Shown here: piece by piece, positions 950 to 64,000 of the stretch
Numbering within the stretch: position 1 is the first letter of the stretch
How the letters are laid out: every line of letters begins with the position of its first letter
From: a bacterium
Lineage (GTDB): Bacteria > Krumholzibacteriota > Krumholzibacteriia > LZORAL124-64-63
NCBI GenBank assembly: GCA_043823125.1
Contig: JBDRBC010000187.1
Span: forward strand, 5,257 to 69,256
DNA length: 64,000 nt
Reading direction: 5' to 3'
Made by a program: the position numbers and the translations under genes
The notes under the pieces: generated by a model
What the model was told of the DNA's origin: nothing
Seen by the model: only the letters and a program-made list of their open reading frames with translations
Databases searched by the model: none

Positions 950-1477
950 ATGATACTGAAGGGTCTGCTCGGGTCGTTCACGGTGGTTGACGTATTCCAG
1001 TTCCTGGCACTGGCCAAGGTGACCGGTCTCCTGATCATCGACACCGTGAACGACCGGGCTTGGATCTACTTTCACAAGGGTGAGCTGATCTATGCCCGTC
1101 GGCAGGGGCCGACGGAAAGGCTTGGGGATCGCCTGTTGCGGCTCGGCATCATCAGCGAGTCACAGCTCGCCGGTGTCGATCTGCGGAACAATCTGGAATC
1201 CGGCAAGAAAAGGATCGGCCAGATCCTCGTGGACGCGGGTTCCCTGGATCAGGAATCGTTACAGAAAGTAGTCCGGAATCAGATTCAGGAAGTCGTCACT
1301 GATATCATCGCCTTCGAGAGCGGTGAGTTTCGGTTCTACGAGGACCGTCTCCCCCACGAGGAAGATATTCTGCTGGATGTAAGCCTCGATCTCCTGCTTC
1401 TGGAAGGTATGAAACGTCTCGATGAAATCCGGATGCCACACCGGAACGCAGACGATCCGGAGGGTGAGCCGGTTTGA
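950..1477 (+). CDS. DUF4388 domain protein
   Basis: N-terminal LKGLLGSFTVVDVFQFLALAKVTGLLIID...GELIYA matches the DUF4388 pattern (LkG.L..f.l.dvlQ.l....kTG.L.v...g.i.f..G.iv.A). A GAGGA SD sits about 7 nt upstream of the ATG. Confidence 0.6.
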   Translation: MILKGLLGSFTVVDVFQFLALAKVTGLLIIDTVNDRAWIYFHKGELIYARRQGPTERLGDRLLRLGIISESQLAGVDLRNNLESGKKRIGQILVDAGSLDQESLQKVVRNQIQEVVTDIIAFESGEFRFYEDRLPHEEDILLDVSLDLLLLEGMKRLDEIRMPHRNADDPEGEPV

Positions 1478-1639
1478 CCTTTCTCTGACATCGCTGCCCT
1501 ATCCGGAGCGGCGACGGTCCTGGTTGACGGCAGATGACCCGTTCCCCCGCGTCCGGTCTGGCGGCCGGACGAACATGAATCAGCTCCGTTGGCGCCGTCC
1601 CGTATCAGGGCGGGACGTCTCAACCCGGGGGAGGTACAG

Positions 1640-3955
1640 GTGCAGATCCAGTGGTCCATACCCGGCTGGGGTTGGTTGCTGCTGTTGACCGCCGCGGTGG
1701 CGGGGTTGGTCTGGACGCGTCGTCAGTATCGTTTAAGTGAACCAGCCATCGGTCGGCGACTTCGCTTCTGGCTCGTTGGCTTGCGATTCCTCGCCTTGAT
1801 CTGTCTGCTGCTGGCCATCGCCCGCCCTCTGCTTCACCAAATTCGTCACGAGAGCCGGATCGCCGAGGTTGTGATTCTCGTGGAGGATTCTGCCAGCATG
1901 GCTCTGGCCACGGAGACGGACAGCACTTCGCGCTGGGAACGGGCTCGCGAACTCGTTGCCCGCGCTGATTCCCTGCTGCAACAACGAGATATCCCGGTGC
2001 ATTGTACCTGGCTGCGGGGCAATGGGCTGACCCCGTCACAACCGTTCACTTTGCCCGCCGCCACACCACCGCCTCCGGTCGCGGTGGGTAGTGACCATGC
2101 CGTGCTCGTTCGAGAGGTGACCAATCGCTGGGCCGAACGCCCGCTGCGCGGCCTGATCCTGCTGACTGACGGTAATGACACGGCGGAACAACGTGGACCG
2201 GGCGCTTCAGCCACGAATCTCGGTTCGACCGCATTACTGGCTCTCGGTCTGGGCGACCCCACCGGGCCCGCGGACCGTTTCATTCAAGACCTGCGGTATC
2301 CGGACACCGCCTTTGCGGGTGATGAGGTCGTGGTGGAGGTAAGCGTTGCCAGCCGTTTCCCGGAGGCGATGGCCACCGGTGAAGTGGTGGTTCGGCTCCT
2401 GGCTGGAGAAGAGGTGGTTGCCAGGGCGAGTGCGCCGCCGGAAACGGGTAGCGGGATCACCCGTCTCGAACTGACTGTGGCTCCGGAGAGTCCCGGGCTC
2501 CAGGTGTACGAGCTGGAGGTGGCGCCTCTCGACAACGAACGTTACCTCAGCAACAACCGTGCGTCAGTGGCCGTTAACGTGAGGAAGGAACGGGCACGCC
2601 TGCTCCTGCTCGCCGGCCGCCCGCACTGGGACCTCCGGTTTCTCGCCCAGGCCGCTCGCCACGAGGAGCGTCTGCAGGTGGACGTCGTCTATCTCGGACA
2701 GTCCGGTCTTGTTCTTGCTGATAGCAGCACCAGCCCTACCTGGTCACCGCCCGGTGATGTGGCGGGTTGGAGTCAATGGGATGGGATCGTCCTGTTCGGT
2801 TGGACCGATCTGCGCGAGCGGATAGACTGGGGGACCTTCTCTCAAGCCGTGCGCGCTGGCCGCGGTCTCCTTGTGTTGCCGGATGGCACATTCGCGCACG
2901 GTGGGGCAGAGGTAGAGCAGCGGGTTGAACAGATGACCTCGCCCCTGGCAGAGTTGCTGCCGGTAAGGCTCGACCTAGCCTTGTGGGAGGCGAATAGCTG
3001 GTTCGGTCGGGGCACGGCCGTCGGCGGTCGACATCCCCTGTTGGCCGGGGTCACGTATCAGGTGACTCCTGGCAATGAGTTCGGCTCTGGCCGGCTGCCC
3101 CCGCTGATGGAGGTGGCCAGCGTCACCCTGCGGCCTGACGCCATCCAGTTGCTGACCGCGGCACCGCAACGGGCCGAAAACGAGCAGCGGTCTTCCCGGG
3201 AATCGGAGCACCCGCTGCTGGTACTGGGACAGGCAGGACAAGGGAACATCGCCTGGTTTGGCGGACGCCAGCTCTGGGAACTGGCGTTCTGGGAACCTTC
3301 CCTGCAGCGGAACGATCTCGAGGAGCAGCCGGCTCGCCGCTTGCTACGCAATCTCCTCCTCTGGACGGCCAAGGGGGAAGAGGATTCCGGACTGACCCTG
3401 GTGGGGCACCGCACGGTCTATCGCGAAGGCGAACGGATCCGACTCGAAGCCCAGTGGCGTGATCTGCGCGGTACCCCGGTGACGGATCGAGCGTTGGCTC
3501 TGGAACTGGCGCCGATGACACCGGAGTCCAGGTTGCCGATCCGCACCTATTCCATGGATCCGCTACCGGGACATCCCGGACATGCCGAGGTCCTCCTGCC
3601 ACCCGTGCCGCCGGGACAATATCGTGTCCGCCCGCGGGCGGCGGACGATGAACAAATCGAGGGCCGTGAAGCAGCACTGGTTGTGACCCCGCACAGCCTG
3701 GAGGCGACCCAGGTCAGGCAAGACAGTCGTTTCCTGCGGCAGCTCGCCAGCGGTTTGGGGGGGAGTTATGCCTCCGGCAACAGTGACGCAACGGATGATC
3801 GGTTGGTACAGTTCTGTGAGGATCTCGATCTGGCGGGGGATGTGCTGACGTTGAACTCCCGCCGGGCTGTCTGGTCGGGCTGGCCCCTGTTGACCGTGGC
3901 CTCGCTGTTGCTTGGCGCAGAATGGGTACTCCGGCGTCGTCACGGTCTGTTGTAA
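1640..3955 (+). CDS. Membrane-anchored von Willebrand factor A (vWA) domain protein (BatA-like architecture: N-terminal TM pair, vWA/MIDAS, large extracytoplasmic region, C-terminal TM)
   Basis: GTG at 1640 lies 7 nt after GGGGGAG. Hydrophobic N-terminus (WGWLLLLTAAVAGLVW, LRFLALICLLLAIARPLL); DxSxS MIDAS-like motif (ILVEDSASM) and LLTDGNDT; C-terminal hydrophobic helix (WPLLTVASLLLGAEWVL). Family assignment is from motif recall only. Confidence 0.5.
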   Translation: MQIQWSIPGWGWLLLLTAAVAGLVWTRRQYRLSEPAIGRRLRFWLVGLRFLALICLLLAIARPLLHQIRHESRIAEVVILVEDSASMALATETDSTSRWERARELVARADSLLQQRDIPVHCTWLRGNGLTPSQPFTLPAATPPPPVAVGSDHAVLVREVTNRWAERPLRGLILLTDGNDTAEQRGPGASATNLGSTALLALGLGDPTGPADRFIQDLRYPDTAFAGDEVVVEVSVASRFPEAMATGEVVVRLLAGEEVVARASAPPETGSGITRLELTVAPESPGLQVYELEVAPLDNERYLSNNRASVAVNVRKERARLLLLAGRPHWDLRFLAQAARHEERLQVDVVYLGQSGLVLADSSTSPTWSPPGDVAGWSQWDGIVLFGWTDLRERIDWGTFSQAVRAGRGLLVLPDGTFAHGGAEVEQRVEQMTSPLAELLPVRLDLALWEANSWFGRGTAVGGRHPLLAGVTYQVTPGNEFGSGRLPPLMEVASVTLRPDAIQLLTAAPQRAENEQRSSRESEHPLLVLGQAGQGNIAWFGGRQLWELAFWEPSLQRNDLEEQPARRLLRNLLLWTAKGEEDSGLTLVGHRTVYREGERIRLEAQWRDLRGTPVTDRALALELAPMTPESRLPIRTYSMDPLPGHPGHAEVLLPPVPPGQYRVRPRAADDEQIEGREAALVVTPHSLEATQVRQDSRFLRQLASGLGGSYASGNSDATDDRLVQFCEDLDLAGDVLTLNSRRAVWSGWPLLTVASLLLGAEWVLRRRHGLL

Positions 3956-4095
3956 GCACCACCGGCTTTCGGCGCCACGGCGAACTGTTGCCGCCCTCCT
4001 TTCGCTTCTTCCCTCCCTGATGTCGATGACCACGAGGCAGGGTCGGTCGACAGCTCTCCTGCCTGTGCAGTCCCTCCCGGATAGGTATTGGATCC

Positions 4096-5871
4096 ATGTT
4101 CTTCGGATCACCGCAGTGGATTGGGGCGGTGTACCCTCGGGGTTACTGGGGCGGATTGTTGATGACTCTCGTGTTGACACTCCCGGTGGCACCGCTGTAC
4201 GCGAGCGAACTGGTGCTGAACGAAATCCTCTACGATCCGATGGGCGCCGATGGTGGCCAGGAATTCGTGGAGCTGTTCTGGGGGGGGACGACAGCGCACT
4301 GTCTGGAGGGAGTCCGGCTCGAGTTCGCCAACGGATCAGCGGCGCCGGAGTGGCAGTTGCGCTGGACCGGGACAGTGCGGGACACCATCCAGCCGGGCGG
4401 ATTCTTTCTCATCGTCGACACGGGCTGGGAATCGGTCGTGCCGCTGGATGTGGAAGTTTCCCTCGCCCTGCAAAATGGCCCGGATGCAGTGAGACTGACC
4501 GGCCCGACGTTGAGTCAGGATGTGCTGGGTTACGGCGATCTGGCGGACAGTACATTGTACGAGGGAGAGCCGCACCCCGATGTCGCTTCGGGTTACTCGG
4601 TGGCGCGACGTCCCGACGGATTCGATAGTGACAACAACCTGCAGGATTGGGTGGCGCTGGCTGATCCGACCCCGGGTTCGCGAAATTTCCAGCTCCTGGC
4701 GGGGCGGGTCAGTCGTTTCGAAGCGTGTCCAGCTTCGCTCCCGGTCCCGAGTTCTCCGGTGGAGTTGCGTTGCGAACTGTACAATTGCGGTCTGGTGGAA
4801 ATTGCCGCCGGGACCGTCTCTCTGCTGGTGACGGAGACCGGTGAATCAATCCCCGCCTGGCTCGACCAGCTTCCCCCCGGACAAGGCCAGTGGTTGCAGT
4901 ACGCCTGGACGCCCCTTGCGGTTGGCCGGTACCGATTGGAACTGGAGCTCACTACCCTGGCCGGTGAAAACCCCTGGCGACTGCCAGCAGGAAGATTCCA
5001 GGTGGGGATCACCGGGCCTTATCTGAACGAGGTCATGGCGGCACCTGCCAGCACCAGCTGCGAGTGGGTGGAGATCGGGAACGCCGGCCCGGTGTCGGTG
5101 GCGCTGGACAGCCTGCAAATCCGGGATGAAGACGGTGACTGGCGGATCTTACCGTGCTTTCAGCTTGCACCTGATCAATTCGTGGTGCTCGTGCAAGACC
5201 GCGACCGATTCCTGGGCTGGTGGGAAGGATTGGTCACGGACGGCGCTGCAGCGCCGTGCGGCAATGAGGCGCCGGTGACAGGTTCGCTGTTGCTGGGAGG
5301 TTGGCCCTCCCTCAATAACAGCGCACCGGACAGTCGGCAGTTTGCTGACAGGCTTTATCTTGGCGATTCCCGCGGTGTTGTCCTGGATCAGGTCACCCTC
5401 GGTGAGCAGGAAGCCCTGCCGGTCGGACGCAGTCTGGAGCGAATTGCTCTGGCGCCCAGAGGGGCCCTGGCGAGAAACTGGGGGCCCGCCACCACCGCTC
5501 TGGGAGGGACCCCGGCCTGCGGCAATAGCATCGCCACCCTGCCCGCATCGTCTGCCACCCTCACCCTGATTCCCAATCCTTTTGTTCCTGGCGGTCAGCA
5601 GGACAGTGTCTTGCACATCCAGTTCCAACTCACTGCTGATAGCAATGGCTGGGATGTCCGGGTCTTCGACCTCTGGGGTCGCCTCGTCCGCGATCTCGGT
5701 GGCGATGAGCTCGGAACGGGACCGCGGGATCTACTCTGGGACGGCCGAGACGACCGGGGTGAATTAGTGGAGGTGGGCGCATATATCGTCCTGCTTCGAC
5801 TGTTCGATAGCGATCATGCCACCACGGGAGGAGTCAAACGGCTAGCCGTGGTGCACGATAATTTCCGTTGA
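4096..5871 (+). CDS. Secreted protein with two lamin-tail domains (LTD) and a C-terminal FlgD-Ig-like / T9SS-type sorting domain
   Basis: Signal-peptide-like N-terminus (…RGYWGGLLMTLVLTLPVAPLYA|SE). LTD signatures LVLNEILYDPMGADGGQEFVELFWGG and PYLNEVMAAPASTSCEWVEIGNAG. C-terminus IPNPFVPGGQQDSVLHIQFQL…WDVRVFDLWGRLVRDL…LLWDGRDDRGELVEVGAYIVLLRL is typical of FlgD-Ig/Por-secretion-tail domains. Its stop overlaps the next start (TTGA). Confidence 0.6.
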   Translation: MFFGSPQWIGAVYPRGYWGGLLMTLVLTLPVAPLYASELVLNEILYDPMGADGGQEFVELFWGGTTAHCLEGVRLEFANGSAAPEWQLRWTGTVRDTIQPGGFFLIVDTGWESVVPLDVEVSLALQNGPDAVRLTGPTLSQDVLGYGDLADSTLYEGEPHPDVASGYSVARRPDGFDSDNNLQDWVALADPTPGSRNFQLLAGRVSRFEACPASLPVPSSPVELRCELYNCGLVEIAAGTVSLLVTETGESIPAWLDQLPPGQGQWLQYAWTPLAVGRYRLELELTTLAGENPWRLPAGRFQVGITGPYLNEVMAAPASTSCEWVEIGNAGPVSVALDSLQIRDEDGDWRILPCFQLAPDQFVVLVQDRDRFLGWWEGLVTDGAAAPCGNEAPVTGSLLLGGWPSLNNSAPDSRQFADRLYLGDSRGVVLDQVTLGEQEALPVGRSLERIALAPRGALARNWGPATTALGGTPACGNSIATLPASSATLTLIPNPFVPGGQQDSVLHIQFQLTADSNGWDVRVFDLWGRLVRDLGGDELGTGPRDLLWDGRDDRGELVEVGAYIVLLRLFDSDHATTGGVKRLAVVHDNFR

Positions 5872-6827
5872 ACTCCCGTGTGTTCGGGAACAACTTCCTT
5901 CCTGCCAACATGATATTGCATCGGCTGTATAACGTTTGGGGCCACCAGGCGGATGTCGCTGGATTTCCAGGTCGTCACTGGTTGTTCACCCGAGGGCGTT
6001 CCGGGTTGTACCACGCGACTCTCGCCGGGATGGTCTGGATCCTCACTACTTGCTGCCCGGCCATCGGCTGTGCTGGTGGACTTCGTGATCTTCAAGACGG
6101 CTGGCTGGTGCCAGTGGCCGCGACAGCCCGCATGCTCGGCGATCGGTCCGGGGATAGTGTCAGCGACCTGCCGGATCGGGGTCTCTGGGTGGCGTGTGGT
6201 CGGTCCAGCCTGTACGGCATGCCGGAACTCCCGTTACGACGACTGGCGCTCGGTGCGCTGTTCCCGCGGTTTGCACTTTCGGCTGCGTGGCAGCGGCTCG
6301 GAGATGATCTCTACCGCGAGGATACCATTCGGGGGCGTTTGGAGGTGGGGAGACACTGGCGCGGGGTGTTGGAGGGAGGATACGACCGGATCGAACTGGC
6401 GGCGGTAAGTAAACGATCTATCCCCCGACTGCAGCTCACCCTGCTGATGCCGTTGACCGGCCGAATCCGATTCGTGTGGACCGTACCGCTTCCGGTCAAC
6501 TCGGAGCCGCCCGTCGAGCGAGAACTGTCCCGCTGGCTGGAACTGCACGGCCGGGGACAACAACTATGCTGGTGCCTGGCGTTGGATCGGTCGGGTATGA
6601 GAGTGCCGGCCTTGCAGTTCGCTGTGTTGGCCAGGGTGGCGAATGGCGTCGGCTTCGGTGTGCGCGCGGAACCGGCCACCGGCAGTTTGGGTGGATCCAC
6701 TGTCTGGCTGCGGGGGGACGGAACCGCTGGGTCCTGGCTGGTGCGAACCTCTCATGTGATGCATCCGGATCTGGGCTTGACCCATCGCTGGTATCTCGCC
6801 TGGGGAAATGTGGGGGCAGCCTGGTGA
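5868..6827 (+). CDS. Hypothetical protein (319 aa), translationally coupled to both neighbours
   Basis: Long ORF in a coding-like high-GC3 frame. TTG start overlaps the upstream stop (TTGA at 5868-5871); its stop overlaps the downstream GTG (GTGA at 6824-6827). No recognisable motifs; the protein ends in ...GAAW. Confidence 0.4.
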   Translation: MNSRVFGNNFLPANMILHRLYNVWGHQADVAGFPGRHWLFTRGRSGLYHATLAGMVWILTTCCPAIGCAGGLRDLQDGWLVPVAATARMLGDRSGDSVSDLPDRGLWVACGRSSLYGMPELPLRRLALGALFPRFALSAAWQRLGDDLYREDTIRGRLEVGRHWRGVLEGGYDRIELAAVSKRSIPRLQLTLLMPLTGRIRFVWTVPLPVNSEPPVERELSRWLELHGRGQQLCWCLALDRSGMRVPALQFAVLARVANGVGFGVRAEPATGSLGGSTVWLRGDGTAGSWLVRTSHVMHPDLGLTHRWYLAWGNVGAAW

Positions 6828-8512
6828 ACTGGCGAAAGACAACTTCCGCTGCCGCATGGAGCTTTGGGCTGTTGATCTGTACCTGGATCGTGATAAGCAA
6901 CGGTACGGTGGTTCTGGCTCAGGCCGAGGAAATGGCAGTGCCGGATTCGACGTCCGGTGACGAACTCACCGGGTATCCATGGCTCGACGCCGAGGCAACA
7001 GCTTCCTTACTGGTGGATGTGGTCCAAAACGAAACAGGATTGACGGAGGCCGACTGGGAACGACTCGGACTGCTGGAACTCGTGGCCCGAGACAGTGCCA
7101 CGACACAGGCGTCAGCGGCGTTATCTCGGCGGGGCGGACAAGCGGCCTACCGGCTCTACTGCCGGGACGGGACTGCCGGATCACGCCTCGGCTGGGTCCG
7201 TTTTTCACATGGACCGTGGAGTGGTGCTGGCCGGACCAGGCTCGACCTGGAAAACCGTCGTCAGCGCGGAGGGTATCTGGCCTGGGTACAGGATAGCGTG
7301 CGGATCCGGCTCGGCGGAACCGGTTTGCAGCACGGCCTGGGTTTACTCTTCGCGGCGCCCGGTCGCTGGCGAAGTCGATCGGCCACCGCACGGCTGGCCA
7401 GTGGTGGGACCGGGGCAGTGGCCTACAGCGGGACCGACGATCCACGGGCGGTCTGGGGGATAGCGACGGAGCTGCATCTTGCCGACTGGCGGCTGACGAC
7501 CTTGTGGGGGCGACCGGACGGGAGGTCCGCCGATGAGGCGGAATCGATCCAGTTGATCCAGCTGTCGCGCTTCTTGACCGAGGGGGAGGTGAGTGTCGCC
7601 GCGGGTCGCCGAGGCGTGGCCCAGGGTATCAGCCTGGCTTTCCGTTCCCAACCGGAGTGGGGTGAACTGCGTCTGGAAACCGCTTGCTGGCGCCAGGAGG
7701 CGACGAAACCGCTGGCGTCCGCGGCAGCGGTGAACCTGCGGTTCGTGGCCAAGCGCTGGCAACTGGAGGGGCAAATCAGTTCAGCTTGTTCCGGGCAGAC
7801 ACCGTTTCTGGGGCAACGCCCGGCGGCGTTGCCGGCCTGGTGGGGTTGGGGATGGTTGCTGCGGGGAGAGATTCGGCTGGACCGGAGCAGTCGGGTCCAG
7901 GCGCTGGTGGGCCGAGGCGTGGAACGAGAGCCCACGGCAAACGGGCCGCGCTCGCGCGAGAGTCACCGGCTCGAACTGGTTCTGGTCACCCGACTCCGTC
8001 CTGGCGTCCGTTTGCTGGCGCGCGTCCGGTGGCAAGGCCGCGGGGACCGGGGTTGGCAACAACGCTCCCCCTGGTTGCCGCCAGCGCTTTACGCTGATTC
8101 GTCGCGTCGACTCATGGTCATGGATCTCGAACGCACCTGGCCGCAACTCCGGCTGCTCGTGTCCGTGCGAGATCAGGGCCAGCAGGAGGCGACCGAGATT
8201 CCGTTGGGTACGACCAGTCGCCATTTGTTGACGTGTTCCCTCGTCTGGAAGGCCAATGAAAGCTGGCGGTGGCGTTTCGGTCGGGGGTGGGCTTGGGGAG
8301 CGCCGCTGGATTTGTTGACGGTTGCGGTTCCGGCGCCCGGCATTGTCACTCCACGCCACTGGGGCGGTTGGGACAGCGAGACCAGTCTCGGCTGCGAGTG
8401 TCGCTGGCGGGATATACTATGGCAAGGTGGGGTCGCTTTTCGCGAAGCGCGTCTCGATTCGGACCTGCCGGATCGCTGCGAGTTCTGGGGACGGACGGGA
8501 GTCGCCTGGTAA
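6824..8512 (+). CDS. Putative secreted / outer-membrane beta-barrel-like protein (563 aa)
   Basis: The in-frame GTG at 6824 gives a signal-peptide-like N-terminus (VNWRKTTSAAAWSFGLLICTWIVISNGTVVLAQA|EE). Trp/Arg-rich with alternating hydrophobic stretches and a C-terminal aromatic residue (…GRTGVAW). The 5' part of the track ORF (6476-6823) overlaps the preceding gene and is not considered coding. Confidence 0.45.
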   Translation: MNWRKTTSAAAWSFGLLICTWIVISNGTVVLAQAEEMAVPDSTSGDELTGYPWLDAEATASLLVDVVQNETGLTEADWERLGLLELVARDSATTQASAALSRRGGQAAYRLYCRDGTAGSRLGWVRFSHGPWSGAGRTRLDLENRRQRGGYLAWVQDSVRIRLGGTGLQHGLGLLFAAPGRWRSRSATARLASGGTGAVAYSGTDDPRAVWGIATELHLADWRLTTLWGRPDGRSADEAESIQLIQLSRFLTEGEVSVAAGRRGVAQGISLAFRSQPEWGELRLETACWRQEATKPLASAAAVNLRFVAKRWQLEGQISSACSGQTPFLGQRPAALPAWWGWGWLLRGEIRLDRSSRVQALVGRGVEREPTANGPRSRESHRLELVLVTRLRPGVRLLARVRWQGRGDRGWQQRSPWLPPALYADSSRRLMVMDLERTWPQLRLLVSVRDQGQQEATEIPLGTTSRHLLTCSLVWKANESWRWRFGRGWAWGAPLDLLTVAVPAPGIVTPRHWGGWDSETSLGCECRWRDILWQGGVAFREARLDSDLPDRCEFWGRTGVAW

Positions 8513-8617
8513 TAAACGCGGACTCAACTTCTCGCGCGGTTCACCGAAATCAAGGGAGGTGTTGTCCATCCAGTTTTAACCTGAATTGCCAGCAGTCGGT
8601 ACTGGGATTATTACTCT

Positions 8618-10261
8618 ATGCCCACGGTGATCTCACAACCACTCCTTTGGGATTCGCTCAAAATCAAGGGTGGGAATCCGCCGCCTGCCTCGATCCTCGC
8701 CGGGCTCACGCAGCTGGCCGAGGCCACGGACTCCCTGCCCGAACGATCACACAATCTGTACACCCTGTTGCGCAAGCAGCTCGGTCAGGCCCAGCTCGCA
8801 GACTGGTTGCGCGGGATCCAGCATCTCGCTTGCGGCGGTGATTCGACGGGGGCGAGGTTGCTGGCAGCATTTCTGGAGGCCAATACACCCGGCGCCCGTC
8901 TGATCCCACGGATCAGTACGTTCGCCAGTAGCCGGCGGCTGTTTCTGGACTGTGCAGCCCTGACAGCCCCGGATCCGGAACTCGGGGCCTGGCGAGATCG
9001 ATTCAAGCAGCTGCAAAGAACGGTCCTCGATCTGGATCTGGCCCAGCCCACGGAAACCGCGGCTGGTCTGGAAATGCCTGATAGACCGGACAGGCCGGGT
9101 CGGGAACCTCCGTTTCCCCAACTTCGACGCTGTCTGCGTTATCTCGTGTCGGCTGTGTACCGCAACGAGACCATGGCGGAAAATGATCGTGAGCTGCTGG
9201 TGGCGCTGACTCGGTTGGAGGCCGATGCCTACGAGGAGCGCATCTCGCGACTGGCCGGCCAGGTGAATCCGTACCGAGCCACCGCCGTGACCCGGGTCTT
9301 GCCGTTATTGAGTCAGGCGGATACGGATGTACGTGATCTGTACGAGTTCATCGGCTGGATCGAGGCGGGAGACATCGAGCAAGCCTTCCACCAGCGTCGA
9401 CCGCGTCTCTACGAGGTGCTCGAACCGAACGAACGCACCAGGCTGCTGACACTGTTGAAGCAGGAGCCGGATCTGGAACTGCTGGCGCAAATCTTGGAAT
9501 CGCTGCTGGAGCGGGCGGTGCCTGTCTCGTTGCTGGCGGGGCACTTGGCGCATCTGCTGGCCTTGACGCACGAACTGTGTCGACACGGTGTCAGGAAGCA
9601 CGACCTGGACCTGCTCACGGCAACCGTGGTAGCCCAGCAGTTCAGCCTTGAAGGTGAGCTGCGGTTACTACTGGACAGCAAAACCCACTATGCCATCGCC
9701 CAGATCATGGCCGAGCCGCGGCCCGACGGTCCCCTGGCCCACTGGCCACTGGACGGGTTTCAGTTGCTGGCGGACGAGCTGGTGCTCCCGGCGTCGCGGG
9801 CAGGTGAGGCGGGTCGGAACTGGCCGGATGACTTGCCGTCCCGTGGCGAGGGCGACAGTGTTCATCCGGTGCGGGAAACGCCGCCGGCCGAGCAGGAGGC
9901 TTCCATCAAGAAGCTGGTTTTGAACAATCTCGGATCCGTGAGCGTTTTGATCGGTTTCCTCCGCAATCCCAAGATCGTCGGGGTGCCGGGACTGGTGGCC
10001 GAAGTGGCAGCTCGGTGTCGCAGTCTGATGGTACTCGACGTCATCGCCACCGACCGCACTCTGTACACCGGATTCGCCAACCGGGAGGTCCCGCTGACGC
10101 TCCTGCGCAGTCCGTGCAACATCTCCATCAAAAAACTCCGCAAGTTCATCCAGGTGAAATACGTGAACAAGGTGGACCTGAAACGGATGGCCAATGACAA
10201 GGCGGGGATCCGGGATGAGGTGGTCAAGGAGATCGACCGCTATCTTCGAACGCTCGTCTGA
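8618..10261 (+). CDS. Hypothetical protein (547 aa), predicted mainly alpha-helical, no recognisable domain
   Basis: Long ORF with coding-like codon usage; ATG at 8618; no motif I can assign. Confidence 0.4.
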   Translation: MPTVISQPLLWDSLKIKGGNPPPASILAGLTQLAEATDSLPERSHNLYTLLRKQLGQAQLADWLRGIQHLACGGDSTGARLLAAFLEANTPGARLIPRISTFASSRRLFLDCAALTAPDPELGAWRDRFKQLQRTVLDLDLAQPTETAAGLEMPDRPDRPGREPPFPQLRRCLRYLVSAVYRNETMAENDRELLVALTRLEADAYEERISRLAGQVNPYRATAVTRVLPLLSQADTDVRDLYEFIGWIEAGDIEQAFHQRRPRLYEVLEPNERTRLLTLLKQEPDLELLAQILESLLERAVPVSLLAGHLAHLLALTHELCRHGVRKHDLDLLTATVVAQQFSLEGELRLLLDSKTHYAIAQIMAEPRPDGPLAHWPLDGFQLLADELVLPASRAGEAGRNWPDDLPSRGEGDSVHPVRETPPAEQEASIKKLVLNNLGSVSVLIGFLRNPKIVGVPGLVAEVAARCRSLMVLDVIATDRTLYTGFANREVPLTLLRSPCNISIKKLRKFIQVKYVNKVDLKRMANDKAGIRDEVVKEIDRYLRTLV

Positions 10262-10422
10262 CCTTCCCCCTAAAATCGCTGGAATATCGGCCTGAAACTC
10301 CCATTCGAAACGATTTACTACACTTGACTTGCTCCAGGCTCCTGCCTACGTTTGAGCCTGGTCAGCTACTCGCAACCTGTCGGCTGCGACCGGAAAATGA
10401 CTTTGAATCAAGGAGTAACTCT

Positions 10423-11586
10423 ATGCTAGCCAAGAGGATGTCGAGACTGGGGACCGAGACGGCATTCGTCGTGCTGGCGCGCGCCAAGGAACTCGAAGCC
10501 GCCGGCAAAGATGTGGTGCACCTGGAGATCGGGGAACCCGATTTCGATACGCCACCCAATATCATCGCGAAAGCGGTCGAGGCGCTCAACTCAGGCTATA
10601 CCCATTATGGACCGGCCGCCGGCCTCCCGGAAGTGCGTCGGGTGTTTGCCGAGTACATAGCGCGGGATCGTGGCATCGCCATCGGGCCCGAAAACGTTGT
10701 CGTGACGCCTGGCGGCAAGCCGATCATATTTTTCCCGCTGCTGGCCCTGGTGGATCCGGGAGACGAGGTTGTCTACCCCAATCCCGGTTTCCCCATCTAC
10801 GAATCGGTGATCAATTTCCTCGGCGCCAAGGCGGTGCCGTTAAAGCTGGCGGAAGAGCAGAACTTCTCGTTCTCCATCGATGACCTGACCAGTCTGGTGA
10901 GTGATCGCACCCGGTTGCTGATCATCAATTCGCCGCAGAACCCCACCGGCGGCGTACTTTCCGCCGACGATCTGGACGCCATCGCCGAGCTGGCGGTGAA
11001 GCACGACTTCTGGGTCCTGTCCGACGAGATCTACAGCAAGATCGTATACGAGGGCAAACACGAGTCCATCTCCACCCGACCCGGGATGCTGGAACGGACC
11101 ATCATTCTCGAAGGCCATTCCAAGACCTACGCCATGACCGGCTGGCGACTCGGCTACGGTATCATGCCGGCGATACTGGCCGAGGCGGTGGCCAAGTTGC
11201 AGACGAACTGTACCAGTTGTACGGCCGCCTTCACCCAGATCGCTGGTGCCGAGGCGCTCACCGGACCGCAGGACACCGCCCGGGCCATGGTGGCAGAATT
11301 CCGGATCCGCCGCGACTTGCTGGTGGACGGTCTGAACGCCATCGAGGGCATCACTTGCTTGAAGCCGAACGGTGCTTTTTACGTCTTCCCGAACATCAGC
11401 GCCCTCGGTTTGACCAGCAAGGCAGCGGAAACGCGATTGCTGGAGGACTTCGGCGTGGCGGCCTTGGCGGGCACCTCGTTTGGTGCCTTCGGTGAGGGAT
11501 ATCTCCGCTTCAGTTACGCCAACAGCCAGGAGAACATCCGCAAAGCTCTGGAACGGGTGGCCGAATTCGCCGCCGCGGTACGCTAG
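10423..11586 (+). CDS. Pyridoxal-phosphate-dependent aminotransferase, class I (aspartate/aromatic aminotransferase-like)
   Basis: ATG at 10423 preceded by AAGGAG. Protein (MLAKRMSRLGTETAFVVLARAKELEAAGKDVVHLEIGEPDFDTP…NPTGGV…SKTYAMTGWRLGY) matches the class-I aminotransferase fold and the PLP-lysine region. Confidence 0.8.
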   Translation: MLAKRMSRLGTETAFVVLARAKELEAAGKDVVHLEIGEPDFDTPPNIIAKAVEALNSGYTHYGPAAGLPEVRRVFAEYIARDRGIAIGPENVVVTPGGKPIIFFPLLALVDPGDEVVYPNPGFPIYESVINFLGAKAVPLKLAEEQNFSFSIDDLTSLVSDRTRLLIINSPQNPTGGVLSADDLDAIAELAVKHDFWVLSDEIYSKIVYEGKHESISTRPGMLERTIILEGHSKTYAMTGWRLGYGIMPAILAEAVAKLQTNCTSCTAAFTQIAGAEALTGPQDTARAMVAEFRIRRDLLVDGLNAIEGITCLKPNGAFYVFPNISALGLTSKAAETRLLEDFGVAALAGTSFGAFGEGYLRFSYANSQENIRKALERVAEFAAAVR

Positions 11587-27350: not shown

Positions 27351-29072
27351 GTGGTGGCGGATTGGCGGGTCTGGGAGGAAGAGATACGGACTTTCCCGTT
27401 CGGCGGCGAGAGCGCGGTGATCTGGGTGGTCCGGTGCGATGACCGTGCCGCCAATGGCCCGTTGCGTCTGGTGTTCAGCTACTCCTGGCAACCACAGCGC
27501 TCGCCGCGGAACGGTTCATGGCCGACGCCGCCGACCGTGCCGCCGCTTGGACGTCTGTTGCGGACCATCACCAGTGGCGAGTCACAGCAGCTCGTCTGGC
27601 CCTCGCGACCGCCGGCGGCTCGGGTGACGTCGCCACCCCGCCTCACCGACAGTAGTGTTTCCGGGCACTCCCAGGATAAACCTCAGGACAGAACCCAGGA
27701 CAGAACTCAGGACAGACCCGTGCCGCCGCACCACCTGAACTGCGGCATCCCCGAGTACCAGCTCTGGCTGGAACCGCTCCTGAACGAGCAGGGAAATCAA
27801 GACGATCAGGAGCGATCGGGCGCCCTCGCACTCTGGTACGACAATACTCCACCGTGGGGGGAGGCGGTGCGGCTCTGGGGCAACCGCTTCATCGCCCGTA
27901 TCGGGCCCCTGCTTTCCGAGTTGCCCGCCTGGCCGGGCAGGCTGGGCGCTGGTTACCCGACTCACGGTGGTCTCGGCCCGGAACAACCCGGACAGCTCTG
28001 TCTGTTCGATCCCGCTAAGTTGCCGACGGCGGAGCCCCCGGCTCGCCCACGAAACAACGTCCCTGCTGGTATCCCGTTACCACGACCGGTCTTCGTGCCC
28101 GGTGTCCCTGGCGCGGTGGGGATATCACGCGAATTGCTGACCTGCTGCGCCGCCATCGAGAAGGTGGCGACCAGCGGCGTCAACGTGTTGCTGTACGGTG
28201 AAAGCGGCACTGGCAAGGAAATCATCGCCCACGCCATTCATCAGAGCAGCGGCCGGAGGTCCGGGCCGTTCGTGGGGCAAAACTGTGCTGCGCTGCCAGA
28301 ATCGTTATTCGAGAGCGAGCTGTTCGGCCACCGCGCCGGCGCCTTCACCGGCGCCAGCGGCGACAAGAAGGGCCTGCTCGAGGCGGCCAGCGGCGGGACC
28401 TTTTTCCTGGACGAGATCGGTGACATGCCGCTGCCGTTGCAGATCAAGCTGCTGCGGGTGATGCAGGAACGACGAGTGCGCCGTATCGGTGAACTGGAGA
28501 GTCGGTCGGTGGATCTGCGATTCGTGGCGGCCACCCACAAGGACCTGGATCGGGAGATCACCACCGGTCGGTTCCGGCTCGATCTCTACTATCGGCTCAA
28601 GGTGATCCGGCTGGTGATTCCGCCGTTACGGCAACGACCCGAGGACATTGCCCATCTGCTGGCGTATTTCCTGCGCCGGCACGGGGGAGACCGGACCGGG
28701 CGACGTATCACCGAATCGGCGCTGGCGGCGCTGCAATCGTACCGCTGGCCGGGCAACGTCCGGGAACTGGAGAACGAGGTGAGCCGATTGCTGGCGCTGT
28801 ATCCAGACGAACGACTCATCCGTCTGAAGCACCTCTCCTGCGAGGTCCAGGCCGCCGCAGGCTGGTCGGTGGATCCGGGCGACCTCGGTACCTTACGCAG
28901 TCTCGACGAGGCCAATCAGTTGCTCGAGCGGTATCTGATCCGCAAGGCCATCGCGGCGGCAGGGGGACGCAAGGCGGCGGCGGCCCGCAAGCTCGGGCTC
29001 TCACGACAAGGGTTGTACAAGAAGATCCAGCGATACGGCATGGGCGACCTGATCGGTCAGGGGGGAAAGTGA
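27351..29072 (+). CDS. Sigma-54-dependent transcriptional activator (bEBP) with an atypical ~250-aa N-terminal region
   Basis: Central AAA+ sigma-54 interaction domain (LLYGESGTGKEIIAHAIH…GAFTGA…GGTFFLDEIGDMPLPLQIKLLRVMQER…RLDLYYRL) and C-terminal Fis-type HTH (AAARKLGLSRQGLYKKIQRYG). The N-terminal region has no receiver/GAF/PAS signature and contains a QDKPQDRTQDRTQDRP repeat. Confidence 0.75.
   Translation: MVADWRVWEEEIRTFPFGGESAVIWVVRCDDRAANGPLRLVFSYSWQPQRSPRNGSWPTPPTVPPLGRLLRTITSGESQQLVWPSRPPAARVTSPPRLTDSSVSGHSQDKPQDRTQDRTQDRPVPPHHLNCGIPEYQLWLEPLLNEQGNQDDQERSGALALWYDNTPPWGEAVRLWGNRFIARIGPLLSELPAWPGRLGAGYPTHGGLGPEQPGQLCLFDPAKLPTAEPPARPRNNVPAGIPLPRPVFVPGVPGAVGISRELLTCCAAIEKVATSGVNVLLYGESGTGKEIIAHAIHQSSGRRSGPFVGQNCAALPESLFESELFGHRAGAFTGASGDKKGLLEAASGGTFFLDEIGDMPLPLQIKLLRVMQERRVRRIGELESRSVDLRFVAATHKDLDREITTGRFRLDLYYRLKVIRLVIPPLRQRPEDIAHLLAYFLRRHGGDRTGRRITESALAALQSYRWPGNVRELENEVSRLLALYPDERLIRLKHLSCEVQAAAGWSVDPGDLGTLRSLDEANQLLERYLIRKAIAAAGGRKAAAARKLGLSRQGLYKKIQRYGMGDLIGQGGK
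27672..27719 (+). repeat. In-frame 12-bp tandem repeat x4 (caggaYaRaMcY) inside the sigma-54 activator gene
   Basis: caggataaacct caggacagaacc caggacagaact caggacagaccc, encoding QDKP-QDRT-QDRT-QDRP. Confidence 0.6.
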
Positions 29073-53370: not shown

Positions 53371-54440
53371 GCGATTCGCCAACCGCCGGGTCCGCCGAGA
53401 TGTTGCAATACATCCGGGCCTTGCCGGACCAGCTCGCTGCCAGCGGCGACTTGCCCGGTCTGGACGGTTTCCAACCGCTGACGCAAACGGTACGACAGAT
53501 CGTCTTGTGCGGCATGGGTGGCTCGGCCATCGCCGGCGATCTGGCGCGGCCGCTATGTGAAAACGCCGGCTTACCGCTCTGGAGTCAGCGTGATTACGGA
53601 CTGCCGAACTGGGTGCAAGACGACACGCTCGTGGTGGTCAGCAGTTATTCGGGTGGCACTGCGGAAACCCTCTCCGCCCTAACCGCAGCCCAGCGGCGGG
53701 GTTGTCCTCTGTTCGCCCTGACCTCGGGGGGGGAGTTGCGGGAACGAGCCCAACGCCCGGTCGGGACCGGTTTTCCCGCGGTGATCTTACCCGGTGGTTT
53801 GCCGCCCCGGGCGTCCCTCGGTTTCGGGCTCGGTGCCCTGTTGCACGGGTTGAGTCGACGGCTGAACAAACCGGATTTACGCGCAGATATCCCCGACGCG
53901 CTGTCCGTGTTGCGGGAGGGAAACGAACTCTACGATCCCGGTGATTCCGCTGCCACGCAACCGGTCGACAACCCAGCGGCGGCGGTGGCGACGGACTGTC
54001 TGCACCGCTTCCTCGTGATCTACTCTGCCTCGCCGGAGTCCCACGGCCCCGGCGGGCGTTTGCGGGCCCAGGTGAACGAGAACGCCAAGTCGCCTGCTGG
54101 TAGTTATCAATTTCCCGAACTGGATCACAACGATATCATGGGCTGGGATCTATCACCGGCGCAGCGTGAATATTTCGGTCTGCTCCTGTTGCGAAGTCAG
54201 GACGAGGATCCGCGAAATTCCCAACGGGTTTCCGTGACCGTCGATCTGCTTGCCAGCGAGTTTGCGGTTGTGAACGCGGTTCACGCCCGTGGCGCCACCA
54301 GCCTGGGCCGCATCATGTCCCTGGTTCAGTTCGGCGACTATCTTTCCTGGTACCTGGCCAGGGAGCGTGGCGTCGATCCCATGCCGGTCCACCGCATCGA
54401 CCTTCTGAAGCAACAACTGCAGAAAGGGTCTGAGGTATGA
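53367..54440 (+). CDS. Bifunctional phosphoglucose/phosphomannose isomerase family (SIS)
   Basis: …LCGMGGSAIAGDL…VVVSSYSGGTAETL… twin SIS layout typical of archaeal/bacterial PGI/PMI. Confidence 0.7.
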   Translation: MSDSPTAGSAEMLQYIRALPDQLAASGDLPGLDGFQPLTQTVRQIVLCGMGGSAIAGDLARPLCENAGLPLWSQRDYGLPNWVQDDTLVVVSSYSGGTAETLSALTAAQRRGCPLFALTSGGELRERAQRPVGTGFPAVILPGGLPPRASLGFGLGALLHGLSRRLNKPDLRADIPDALSVLREGNELYDPGDSAATQPVDNPAAAVATDCLHRFLVIYSASPESHGPGGRLRAQVNENAKSPAGSYQFPELDHNDIMGWDLSPAQREYFGLLLLRSQDEDPRNSQRVSVTVDLLASEFAVVNAVHARGATSLGRIMSLVQFGDYLSWYLARERGVDPMPVHRIDLLKQQLQKGSEV

Positions 54441-60557: not shown

Positions 60558-63500
60558 ATGGCCTGCTTGTTCCTGCTGCTGTTGCTGTGCTCGAGCCCGG
60601 TTTTAGCTGATCCCGAGTATGGCGACCTGGTGCTTCCCGGATTCGACCCGGTGCTGCGAGCCACCCGCGATCCCCGTTTGCTTGGCGTGCAGCGGCTGCT
60701 CATCCGGGAACGGATGCTGGCTCAGGGTATCGATCCCCAACGCAGTAAGGCCTCGCCTGATCTCCATAGCCTTGTGCAACATCGCCTGATCGAGAATTCC
60801 CGTGTCGATCTGCGTCGTCTGGTCACCGTGAAAGAAGTCAGCGGCACGACCGGACTGGTGACGGTATTCCAATACCCTGAATATTTCTATCTGTTCCAGA
60901 CCCCCGAGGACTTGCCCGGCGGATTCGTCTATTATCCGCCACGGCCGGTAGACGCCCCCGAGGTGGAACTTTTCCTGGACGACATCGATTCGGCTCGCGA
61001 GCGTGGCTTCGCCCTGGACCAGGTGCAGACTCGCCTTTCGTTGCTCGGCGCCGGCGGTGGCACTGGCCGGGGTGGCGCCGGTGATGGTCTCCTCAATCTC
61101 ACCATTCCCATCAAGTTGCCCCGCACCCTGGAAAAGATCATCGGCCGCGGGGAAAAAACCAACATCAAGATCACCGGCCGCGAGCACATCGCAATCTTTG
61201 GCGAGAGTACGGTGAGCAACAGGTTCATCCCCAACGAGCGCGTGAAGAGCCAGAGTCTGTTCCCGACCCTCGAAATGGAGCAGCAGCTGCAGATCAACCT
61301 CTCGGGTACCATCGGCGAGAAGATCCACATCGAGGTGGACCACAACAGCGAGGTCATCGGGCCAGAGGCCACCAAGATCCGGCTGATGTACCAGGGGCTC
61401 GAGGACGAGATCATCCAGACCATCGAGACCGGCGATGTCGGTCTGACCCTGCCGGGGAGCCAGCTCCTCGGCTACAGCTCCAACAAGTCGGGACTGTTCG
61501 GCATCAAGGTCACCGGTCAGGTGGGGCGGGCGGACTGGACGGTGGTGGCCAGCAAGCAGAAGGCCGAAAGCGCCGCCAAGTCGTTCAACAGCCGGGGCGG
61601 CGAAGTCGCCGATCACACCATCCAGGCGTCCAACTACGTCAACAATCGCTTCTTCCGCCTCGATCTGCCGCCGCCGCCCTCCGGGCAAGAACCCATCCGC
61701 TACGGGTACCTGACGCCGGATGCCCCCGGTCGTCCTCAGGGGGCCCAAATCGATATCGCGTCGGTGAAAGTATTCCAGTTTCTCGGCGGTGGCATCGCCC
61801 AACTCAACGACATCAACTATGTGGCGGCCTACCGCGATACCACTGGGCTGTGGGGCGATTACACTGTGGCCGATACCCCGGTGGCCCTCGGGGACCGCTG
61901 GCGGGAGGTGGATATCGCCCAGCCTTTGCGGGACGAGTCGGGTAACCTCATCGCCATCGATCTCGGCCGGCAATACAACACCGATGACGAGCTGGCGGTG
62001 ATCTACGATGTGGTCGATGCAAACGGCGAGCTCCTGTATCGGGTCGGCGACCGGCCGGGTCGGGACGAGGGCCAACGTATCGAGGCGGAAGGCGACGGGA
62101 TCCTGTACTACCGCATGAAGCTGCTGAAGCCGAAGTGGTCCAAGGCCGACGCCCATACCTGGCAGTACGTCCTGCGCAACATCTACTCGCTCGGCGGCGC
62201 CAACATCGACTTCGACTCCTTCGACCTGCGGATCGAACTCAACGACCAGGCCCTCGACCACCCGGAACGGGACAGCAACGGCCTCGACTGGATCCGGATC
62301 TTCGGCCTGGATCGAACCGATCCCCAGGGCGACGGAGGGCCGGACGGCATCGTTGATAAAGAGGACCAGTACGTCATCAATCTCAATGCCGGTCTTTTGA
62401 TCTTTCCCATCGACGTGCCGTTCCCGTTCAACGCCGACCGGGAGGTATACGAGTTCTTCGCCGATTCGGATACCTTCGACTGGGACGCATCGTTACTCGA
62501 GAGAAACCTCATTGCCGCAATCTACAGCCATGAGACCCCGACCGCGGATTACAACCAGCACAGCCGTTTCAGCTTCGTGGCGTCCCACGCTGCGGCCGCC
62601 AGCAGCTTCAACCTGGGGGTCTCGAACATCGAGGAGGATTCGGAAACCGTCACCCTCGACGGCCGGACCCTGCAACGTGACGTGGACTACGATATCGATT
62701 ACATGTTCGGCCAGATCACCTTGAAGGGGGACGCCGCCGCCGGCCTCACCGGCGATTCCCAGGTCCAGGTGAATTACCAGTACGCCCCGTTCTTCGGCGG
62801 TGGCAAGAGCAGCCTGGTCGGTTTCAACATGGGGTACGAACTCGGCCGGGACAGCCGACTCTCCACGACCTGGCTCTACGAGAGCAACCAGATCGTCGGC
62901 CACAAGGCGAAACTCGGCGAGGAGCCGAGCCGGACCCTCGTCGGCAACGTCAACCTGCAGCACACCTTCAAACCGTATTTCCTGACCCATGCCGCCAACT
63001 TCCTCAGCCGACACGATTCGGAGAAGGAGAGCACGCTGCGGTTCAACGGCGAGCTGGCGATCAGTGTCCCCAATCCCAATACCCGCGACGAGGCCTACCT
63101 GGAGGATTTCGAAGGCATCGACGCCTCCGATATCCTCACCTTGAGTAGACTGAGCTGGTGGTGGGCAAGCGCCCCGGTGCCGGGCGAGGACCCCGATTAC
63201 GTCGCCGACACGGGAGACACGCGACTCTTCACTCCCGAGGATCGGGTGCCCGATATCCGCTGGTACATTCCCAAAGACCGGGTCCAGCGCTGGTACCTCA
63301 ATCCGGATCTGGTGGAACGGGAACGGCAGGAGACCCAGCAGGCATTGACCGTCCGCATGGTGGCCGACGATCCGGACACCCCGGAGCAGGAGACCTGGCA
63401 GGCCGAGAGCTGGGGAGGGATCATGCGCGGACTGGGGCGAATCGGGCTGAATCTCACCAAGACCCAGTTCGTCGAGTTCTGGGTCAACGACGGCACCCCC

Positions 63501-64000
63501 GAGATGGAGAATCGGCGCGGCACCTTGCATTTCGATTTCGGCTTCATCAGTGAGGATTTCTATTGGCCCGAGAATGACCAGGGAGAGTTGCAGATCGGGG
63601 ACTGGCAATTCGAGGACGCCAGCCGCGATGGCATATTCACCAACGTGGACGAGGATACCGGCCTCGACGGCGTCTTCAATGGTGACGACGAGTATGGCGC
63701 CGAGTACGAGAACGGATCAAATCCATATCCGCGAATCAACGGCACCGAACTCAACAACCGCGAGGACAGCGAGGACCTGGACGGCGATACCAGCTTCGAC
63801 CGCGAGAACGGGTACTTCTCCATCAGCATCGATCTGAAGGAGACCGCGCCGCTGGTAGACGTGGTGCGAGACTATTCCGGTGATGACGTGAATGAGCTCA
63901 TCGATGCGAACATCGCCTGGCGGAAGTATCGAGTGCGGTTGGGCGATATCCTGGTCATCGCGCCGCCGAGTGGTGTTACGCCGCAGATCAGCTCCATCAC
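60558..64000 (+). CDS. sprA: Cell-surface protein SprA-like (T9SS translocon family), 5' portion; the ORF runs off the window end
   Basis: Hand translation from ATG 60558 gives signal peptide MACLFLLLLLCSSPVLA, then …KITGREHIAIFGESTVSNRFIPNERVKSQSLFPTLEMEQQLQINLSGTIGEKIHIEVDHNSEV…, which matches my recollection of the SprA N-terminal signature. No stop was met in any stretch I translated by hand (60558-~61680 and 63900-64000) and no stop-bounded + ORF appears in the track here, so the track shows only its long antisense ORFs. Confidence 0.6.
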   Translation, partial: MACLFLLLLLCSSPVLADPEYGDLVLPGFDPVLRATRDPRLLGVQRLLIRERMLAQGIDPQRSKASPDLHSLVQHRLIENSRVDLRRLVTVKEVSGTTGLVTVFQYPEYFYLFQTPEDLPGGFVYYPPRPVDAPEVELFLDDIDSARERGFALDQVQTRLSLLGAGGGTGRGGAGDGLLNLTIPIKLPRTLEKIIGRGEKTNIKITGREHIAIFGESTVSNRFIPNERVKSQSLFPTLEMEQQLQINLSGTIGEKIHIEVDHNSEVIGPEATKIRLMYQGLEDEIIQTIETGDVGLTLPGSQLLGYSSNKSGLFGIKVTGQVGRADWTVVASKQKAESAAKSFNSRGGEVADHTIQASNYVNNRFFRLDLPPPPSGQEPIRYGYLTPDAPGRPQGAQIDIASVKVFQFLGGGIAQLNDINYVAAYRDTTGLWGDYTVADTPVALGDRWREVDIAQPLRDESGNLIAIDLGRQYNTDDELAVIYDVVDANGELLYRVGDRPGRDEGQRIEAEGDGILYYRMKLLKPKWSKADAHTWQYVLRNIYSLGGANIDFDSFDLRIELNDQALDHPERDSNGLDWIRIFGLDRTDPQGDGGPDGIVDKEDQYVINLNAGLLIFPIDVPFPFNADREVYEFFADSDTFDWDASLLERNLIAAIYSHETPTADYNQHSRFSFVASHAAAASSFNLGVSNIEEDSETVTLDGRTLQRDVDYDIDYMFGQITLKGDAAAGLTGDSQVQVNYQYAPFFGGGKSSLVGFNMGYELGRDSRLSTTWLYESNQIVGHKAKLGEEPSRTLVGNVNLQHTFKPYFLTHAANFLSRHDSEKESTLRFNGELAISVPNPNTRDEAYLEDFEGIDASDILTLSRLSWWWASAPVPGEDPDYVADTGDTRLFTPEDRVPDIRWYIPKDRVQRWYLNPDLVERERQETQQALTVRMVADDPDTPEQETWQAESWGGIMRGLGRIGLNLTKTQFVEFWVNDGTPEMENRRGTLHFDFGFISEDFYWPENDQGELQIGDWQFEDASRDGIFTNVDEDTGLDGVFNGDDEYGAEYENGSNPYPRINGTELNNREDSEDLDGDTSFDRENGYFSISIDLKETAPLVDVVRDYSGDDVNELIDANIAWRKYRVRLGDILVIAPPSGVTPQISSI

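Follow-up and report, generated by a model that had tools for sequence, protein, structure and literature searches.

What brings together six genes on one strand, between the 3' end of ppdK and an aminotransferase gene, in a bacterium of the phylum Krumholzibacteriota, and do these genes act as one system? The genes, here W1 to W6, lie near the 5' end of a stretch of 64,000 nucleotides (nt) (GenBank assembly GCA_043823125.1, contig JBDRBC010000187.1, positions 5,257 to 69,256 of the forward strand), which comes from a metagenome-assembled genome with locus tag ABIF77_06095 and which we call the window. A preliminary description of the sequence had taken the six for a single envelope module unlike any described system. 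The six same-strand open reading frames (ORFs) are indeed present between ppdK and the aminotransferase gene downstream of W6, but comparison with related loci yields a smaller unit: the core is W2-W3-W4-W5, with W1 and W6 as accessory genes, and this core is best explained as an envelope operon that is shared throughout Krumholzibacteriota by vertical inheritance. As to what the operon does, the possibility that we favor, tentatively, is that W3 is a surface protein delivered through the T9SS (type IX secretion system) and held by a barrel of its own, W4, in a manner resembling PorP/SprF or the PorU-PorV pair, accompanied by a large barrel, W5, which this reading leaves unexplained.

The features on which the analysis turns are as follows.

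91-888, upstream of the cluster: 3' end of ppdK (ORF listing)
950..1477, + strand: W1, DUF4388/PATAN-domain protein of 175 amino acids (aa) (match to PF14332)
1640..3955, + strand: W2, BatA-like inner-membrane protein of ~771 aa (orthologue profile against PDB, alignment)
4096..5871, + strand: W3, secreted all-beta protein of 591 aa (lamin-tail domain (LTD) and FlgD_ig matches, orthologue alignment)
5868..5871, + strand: TTGA, stop codon of W3 overlapping the start codon of W4 (direct read)
5868..6827, + strand: W4, predicted 14-stranded outer-membrane beta-barrel of 319 aa (AlphaFold2)
6824..6827, + strand: GTGA, stop codon of W4 overlapping the start codon of W5 (direct read)
6824..8512, + strand: W5, predicted large outer-membrane beta-barrel of 562 aa (AlphaFold2)
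8618..10261, + strand: W6, protein of 547 aa with no signal peptide (ORF; no family match)
60558..64000, + strand: 5' part of a SprA/Sov T9SS translocon gene that runs off the window (TIGR04189)

A conserved operon at the core of the cluster

Related loci came from a genome scan seeded with W6, which yielded 19 loci; from searching exhaustively with HMMER and a profile of W5, which yielded 163 representatives at 50% clustering, the neighbourhoods recovered for eight of them (seven with DNA) being independent of W6; and from a metagenome scan seeded with W2, which added 80 further loci. Every phylum- or class-level label among the 19 W6-seeded loci is Krumholzibacteriota; three loci go under the name 'uncultured Fibrobacteraceae', and all others bear only the label 'bacterium'. 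The three (L003, L008 and L016, of which the truncated L008 comprises W5 and W6 only) carry a cluster and flanks of the Krumholzibacteriota type, and their labels look wrong.

Mapped with tblastn and hidden Markov models (HMMs), the order W2-W3-W4-W5 is identical in all of the ~19 Krumholzibacteriota loci with enough sequence, usually within the arrangement ppdK-W2-W3-W4-W5-W6-(aminotransferase)-AA kinase-purD. In L014 and L021, the genomes that diverge most, W2-W3, the W4-like and W5-like genes, and W6 are retained, with ppdK not upstream, and the persistence of W2 through W5 between different flanks marks the set as a unit rather than a product of regional synteny alone. Within this unit, the three genes that the preliminary description had singled out, namely, the one for the LTD protein and those for the two partners encoded downstream of it, are co-conserved and translationally coupled: the 4-nt stop-start overlaps between W3 and W4 and between W4 and W5, read directly in the window as TTGA and GTGA, recur in nearly all related loci, and six of the W4 sequences that begin at the overlap start codon exactly equal independently called proteins. 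Across the phylum, W4 and W5 retain 25-45% identity, compared with 60-85% for the flanking enzymes, and the persistence of the overlaps at such divergence argues for a complex of fixed ratio.

At its 5' side, the operon may reach further. Where W1 is missing, W2 starts a few codons past the ppdK stop codon (L005, L007, L009, L011, L013, L015, L016, L027 and L028; 2 nt past it in L027 and L028), so that a gene of central metabolism and an envelope gene may be co-transcribed. A fusion of ppdK and W2 in six loci was rejected: the tblastn alignments that suggested it ran through the ppdK stop codon, and translation shows the stop.

The two outermost genes do not belong to the core. W1 is confined to the window, L001, L003 and L023; it is an insertion, specific to the window's sub-clade, that separates ppdK from W2. 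W6 is absent from L025, L027 and L028, that is, from three of the eight loci found independently of it, and there the aminotransferase gene directly follows W5; the earlier impression of a universal W6 arose from the genome scan having been seeded with that gene. The idea of six genes forming one module therefore gives way to the four-gene core.

Some irregularities in individual loci are artefacts of assembly or frameshift: W5 of L001 is split near 9965, L020 contains frameshifts throughout, and W3 of L027 (6359-8315) is broken and was called on the wrong strand.

A secreted lamin-tail protein with a sorting-type C-terminus

What kind of protein, then, is W3? It consists of a signal peptide, a first LTD (~nt 4207-4695), a central CARDB-like immunoglobulin-like (Ig-like) domain, a second LTD (~nt 5008-5505) and a C-terminal domain of the FlgD-Ig type (~nt 5557-5868). 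The twin-LTD assignment of the preliminary description is borne out: PF00932 matches two stretches of the window protein (E 4.9e-15, 56.3 bits vs a cut-off of 34.3), and the domain is found by Pfam in all 13 W3 orthologues, along with FlgD_ig in 11 and CARDB in two of the 13. In the window protein, the FlgD_ig match (aa 502-564 of 591) reaches 26.0 bits vs a cut-off of 27. The orthologue alignment places a signal peptide directly before the first LTD in all members and ends in a ~100-aa C-terminal domain that closes with K-x-L-x-V-V-R. In almost all orthologues, the match of an HMM built from this tail stops 0-6 residues before the stop codon. W3 thus has the layout of proteins that carry a T9SS-type C-terminal domain (CTD), in which a protein with a Sec signal has an Ig-like domain of ~80-100 aa as its extreme C-terminal part; the model of PorU, over its C-terminal region, weakly matches five of the 13 orthologues.

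A further observation bears on how this tail might be used. The tail HMM also matches, in seven loci, a protein encoded upstream of ppdK (E 2e-5 to 2e-3), which is BNR/Sortilin-like where it is annotated (L023, L024 and L028), and in six of the seven, 9-17 residues separate the match from the C-terminus. A weakly related domain on an unrelated upstream protein is to be expected if the sorting signal is shared. Judging from these similarities, the W3 tail would seem to act like a shared C-terminal sorting signal, while not being a certified member of either the type A or the type B CTDs. Examples of the upstream gene are found in L005 (1-510), L013 (1-558), L024 (3-992) and L028 (1-1449); its equivalent in the window's genome would lie beyond the 5' end.

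The translocon to which such a signal would be addressed is encoded in the same genome. The SprA-like gene reported earlier at 60558 matches TIGR04189 with 342 bits vs a cut-off of 200 (E 4.9e-102).

Two predicted outer-membrane barrels

The products of the two genes coupled to W3 had been suspected of being outer-membrane proteins, and this suspicion was well placed: both have signal peptides, and AlphaFold2 models both as beta-barrels. They are, however, barrels of different kinds, and a paralogous relationship between W4 and W5 was rejected (hhalign probability 0.6%).

The W4 model, built from 28 sequences (pLDDT 79.6 overall and ~90 for the mature part, pTM 0.73), comprises short helices at aa 75-91 followed, between aa 105 and aa 313 (nt 6180-6806), by 14 strands. 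The helices are a candidate hatch. W4 matches none of the sequence families in Pfam, NCBIfam or the PDB. In its orthologues, a normal signal peptide follows from the overlap start codon, and in the window the core of the signal peptide is near aa 50-70; the ~50 extra aa in front of that core (window 5868-6030) are shared with L001 and missing from the other orthologues, which leaves the true start in the window uncertain between TTG 5868, ATG 5910 and ATG 6030. The conserved motifs of the family are GGLRDLxDGWL, LYGxPELP, WxRLGxDLxRED, DRxGxGxP, DPATGSxG and SHxxHPxLGxTHR. If the termini are periplasmic, as is assumed here from outer-membrane barrels generally, the strand order of the model combined with the alignment puts the last five of these motifs at outward turns, which suggests a docking rim.

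W5 yielded the more confident model of the two (103 sequences, pLDDT 87.3, pTM 0.84), in which a helical domain of lower confidence (aa 45-99) precedes ~24 strands (aa 104-561, nt 7133-8506). All of its orthologues have a signal peptide, and its sequence matches no family in Pfam, NCBIfam or the PDB. The most conserved motifs, HGxGLLxAxPGR, RPAxLxGWxGxGW, WSxRxPWLPP and AWGDxxDLVSAxxPxPGxVxPRHWGxW, sit in loops, outside the membrane strands.

The preliminary description had also pointed to the terminal tryptophan of both proteins as a mark of outer-membrane barrels. Both do end in this residue, and an aromatic C-terminus is kept in 13 of 14 W5 orthologues; in W4, it is kept in only six of 11, and there the TGGTGA overlap in part dictates the terminal tryptophan.

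A BatA-like protein without MoxR or DUF58 neighbours

The remaining member of the core, W2, belongs to a much wider family. Its longest ORF runs from 1589, and the orthologue alignment makes GTG 1640 the most likely start. From there, two N-terminal transmembrane helices are followed by a von Willebrand factor A (vWA) domain, an Ig-like domain, a GATase1-like domain and further Ig/MG2-like domains, up to a C-terminal transmembrane helix that ends, in the orthologue alignment, in EWxLRRRHGLL. A profile of 12 orthologues searched against the PDB finds the vWA domains of BatA/BatB (4jdu, E 4.1e-6; 3ibs, 1.6e-5) and a GATase1-like structure (3rht, E 1.2e-11), as well as 4rck (E 2.3e-6); the Pfam family GATase1_like (PF07090) is matched by one of the 12 orthologues (E 2.9e-5). 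The vWA domain with a metal-ion-dependent adhesion site (MIDAS) between transmembrane helices, as described before, holds at the level of the orthologue profile and the helices; the window protein alone, however, has no match to Pfam or NCBIfam vWA models, and while the metal-site motif (E/D)xSxS...T/S...D is conserved, the window has ExSxS rather than DxSxS, Glu being the first residue in most members.

The bulk of W2 is predicted to be periplasmic, from the positive-inside distribution of charges and by analogy with BB0173, a BatA-like protein whose large domain is periplasmic by experiment (PMC5700661). W2 resembles BatA and BatB of the MoxR-DUF58 'aerotolerance' operons (4jdu, 3ibs; PMC5700661; PMC3557215) in its two N-terminal transmembrane helices, MIDAS-like vWA domain and GATase1-like domain, and differs from them in that no MoxR or DUF58 was found in the W2 loci of Krumholzibacteriota, that the LTD-barrel trio follows it, and that the first metal-site residue is mostly Glu. 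A tblastn search with ORFs from distant loci as queries revealed neither MoxR nor DUF58, whether in the window or in the Krumholzibacteriota loci. A scan of the window and of the W3-W6-bearing metagenome loci (L029-L037) for motifs ascribed to the two families was likewise negative.

The W2 family is widespread, with relatives encoded in at least 335 metagenome stretches. The usual upstream neighbours of its distant members are a second BatA-type vWA protein and a membrane protein of ~1170 aa, neither of which was found in the window or among the Krumholzibacteriota loci; sequence searches of the PDB with two neighbour ORFs of distant W2 loci returned nothing. One distant metagenome contig, L073, contains two full-length W2-like genes (3696-6179 and 8232-10499), ~2 kb apart on the same strand.

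A tentative mechanism

How might these four proteins work together? We infer the following route. W3, with its two LTDs, Ig-like domain and sorting-type C-terminal domain, would be exported by Sec and would then pass the outer membrane by way of SprA, the type IX translocon, upon recognition of the C-terminal domain; the co-translated 14-stranded barrel, W4, would retain it at the cell surface. W5, with ~24 strands and made in a fixed ratio with W4, would be the third member of an outer-membrane complex, conceivably as a platform or a gated pore, whereas W2, both ends of which are inner-membrane anchors, may touch this complex from the periplasm via the vWA metal site.

The model for this scheme is provided by the T9SS. 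Proteins secreted by this system that keep their CTD uncleaved are held at the surface by PorP/SprF, PorV or PorQ; the porU and porV genes are adjacent, and the PorU-PorV and PorZ-PorQ proteins form pairs. Genes for cargo proteins with type B CTDs adjoin the genes for their own 14-stranded PorP/SprF shuttle barrels (PMC9143113, PMC12618676). The earlier statement that no described system matches the cluster was therefore too strong, given that a gene for a CTD protein beside that for its own 14-stranded barrel is a known T9SS arrangement. The likeness is as follows: W3, with its Sec signal and a C-terminal domain of Ig-like type, is encoded immediately 5' of 14-stranded W4, in a genome with SprA, and W4, like the T9SS shuttle barrels, is predicted from its model to dock a partner at the surface. 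Given that the set is single-copy and phylum-wide, W3 and W4 could also be part of the secretion or attachment machinery, in the fashion of PorU-PorV or PorZ-PorQ, rather than ordinary cargo with its anchor.

Several observations weigh against this reading. The T9SS-type tail named in the preliminary description is right as to its position at the extreme C-terminus and its FlgD-Ig/T9SS-CTD type, but it fails the curated model: TIGR04183, for type A CTDs, does not match the window W3 at E<=0.1 and matches one of 13 orthologues at E 0.047. Among the models of type B CTDs, CHU_C matches one of the 13 at E 0.06, and TIGR04131 has no match among the W3 orthologues in the NCBIfam scan. W4 fares no better with the families of its supposed counterparts. 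Models of PorP/SprF, PorV and PorQ match none of the 28 W4 sequences (12 searched against Pfam and 28 against NCBIfam, E<=1); the best fold matches in the PDB are the 14-stranded OmpG and Omp33; FadL chains appear at ranks 8, 15, 25 and 44 (TM 0.35-0.40), below these two; and no PorV chain is among the top 50 matches. The likeness of W3 and W4 to the T9SS families is, at the level of sequence, a resemblance and not family membership. The second, ~24-stranded, translationally coupled barrel is missing from the known cargo-shuttle pairs, so that W5 stands unexplained, and the phylum is Krumholzibacteriota, not Bacteroidota.

For W2, the difficulty is one of context. About 70 distant members of the family have no W3-W6 gene nearby, and motifs that we take to be those of MoxR and/or DUF58 occur near 14 distant W2-like loci, on the same strand and mostly upstream. 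The link of W2 to W3-W5 is specific to the lineage and is one of adjacency alone (gaps of ~100-140 nt). The vWA-dependent assembly put forward earlier is accordingly a positional argument, as the family is widespread without LTD or barrel neighbours.

Alternative explanations

One could suppose that W4 and W5 jointly form a hitherto undescribed outer-membrane machine of 14 + ~24 strands, specific to Krumholzibacteriota, which translocates or displays the LTD protein alone and is coupled via the periplasm to a BatA-type vWA protein outside the usual MoxR operon; the whole would then be a novel system spanning the envelope, not an accessory of the T9SS. We consider this unlikely.

A little further down the scale of probability is the proposal that the W5 barrel by itself carries W3 across the outer membrane, in the style of the ushers or of two-partner secretion, with W4 as an accessory and the T9SS uninvolved. 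W5 has PDB fold matches to the FimD/PapC ushers, TonB-dependent transporters, LptD and AlgE, and the best of these are the 24-stranded FimD and PapC. The translational coupling of W3-W4-W5, the failure of the W3 tail in the curated CTD model, and the location of the most conserved W5 motifs in long loops, which could gate the lumen, all agree with such a role. The usher match is generic, however: all query TM-scores are <=0.49, and those to ushers (~0.45-0.49) are no better than those to TonB-dependent transporters, the two groups together spanning ~0.4-0.49. Usher plug and N- and C-terminal usher domains (Usher/PapC families in Pfam) were found neither in W5 nor in 75 family members; W5 also lacks POTRA domains, and the genes that adjoin it are W4 and W6, not those of a chaperone or pilin. 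The presence of SprA also counts against this proposal, and the finding that an unrelated protein encoded nearby has a C-terminal domain related to the W3 tail speaks for a general sorting signal.

Distinctly less probable is surface capture followed by uptake, whereby the LTD protein would bind a polymer outside the cell, perhaps extracellular DNA, for import by W5, on the pattern of systems that pair a surface-binding protein with a large barrel. Extracellular nucleases, ExeM for one, contain LTDs (PMC6085458), and five of the 13 W3 orthologues weakly match the ExeM model. As in ExeM and Xds, a lamin-tail domain resides here in a secreted bacterial protein; unlike these nucleases, W3 consists of beta-sandwich modules only, and Pfam and NCBIfam searches reveal no nuclease domain in the cluster. 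The size of W5 is about that of a TonB-dependent transporter, but W5 has neither a plug nor a TonB box, the short N-terminal domain is helical, and TonB_dep_Rec is not matched in Pfam or NCBIfam. Further evidence comes from L014, where the positional orthologue of W5 (8173-9822) contains, at aa 58-116, a ComEA-type HHH_3 domain (E 6.7e-8, above threshold). That protein, however, scores only 18 bits against the W5 profile, a weak match, and HHH_3 is found in none of the 75 representatives of the W5 family, nor in the window protein, which makes DNA uptake only a weak rival. The YPWLDAEATASLL... segment of the window W5 is a possible decayed remnant of an HHH_3 domain of the L014 type.

Housekeeping biogenesis of the outer membrane (insertion of lipid, lipopolysaccharide or protein) that includes the LTD protein incidentally is more improbable still. 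A single-copy, phylum-wide set in a conserved core-genome position, with the base composition of its flanks, would be in keeping with such a function, as would LptD among the W5 fold matches; however, the TM-scores to LptD are only 0.24-0.27, no LptD, BamA or TamA family is matched, and W4 and W5 diverge fast (25-38% vs 60-85% for the flanks), which is unusual for core biogenesis factors.

There is, finally, a similarly slight chance that the genes are functionally unrelated and merely held together by regional conservation of gene order, a notion that the synteny of the flanking ppdK, aminotransferase, AA kinase and purD genes in most loci, the dispensability of W6, the other contexts of the wider W2 family, and the gaps of 100-140 nt from W2 to W3 and from W5 to W6 render plausible for W2 and W6, but which is unlikely for the W3-W4-W5 trio, where the overlaps persist at 25-45% protein identity, and which sits poorly with the retention of W2 through W6 in L014 and L021 despite the loss of the upstream ppdK.

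Accessory genes and surroundings

The two accessory genes differ in how much their sequences reveal. W1 is the DUF4388 protein that the preliminary description had recognized (PF14332, E 1.4e-28, 99.8 bits vs a cut-off of 25), with a sub-threshold motif at aa 57-111 that is related to the cyclic-di-GMP-binding MshEN (33.6 bits vs a cut-off of 38). W6 has a highly conserved C-terminal region of ~120 aa and matches nothing in Pfam, NCBIfam or the PDB; a set of 16 sequences likewise gave no match in Pfam or the PDB.

Elsewhere in the window, the regions 27351-29072, 29702-31435 and 51613-56638 contain genes for a sigma-54-dependent activator, the apolipoprotein N-acyltransferase Lnt, enzyme I of the phosphotransferase system, a phosphoglucose/phosphomannose isomerase, a sugar-1-phosphate nucleotidyltransferase and MetK. 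Neither W2-W6 nor the W3 tail recurs elsewhere in the window; an Rfam scan of the window found nothing, and a scan for promoters and terminators gave no more signals than shuffled sequence.

Implications

To our knowledge, Krumholzibacteriota have no cultured members, and the cell envelope of these bacteria is therefore almost unknown. Against this background, W4, W5 and W6 represent new protein families, of which W4 and W5, with confident barrel models, are coupled to a surface protein of the T9SS type. The operon also presents the rare case of a BatA-like vWA protein, from a family of no known function, with fixed neighbours, which become candidate partners. Should W3 indeed be a T9SS-delivered protein anchored by W4, the principle of the dedicated shuttle barrel would reach beyond Bacteroidota and would include, in Krumholzibacteriota, a large partner barrel without a known counterpart.

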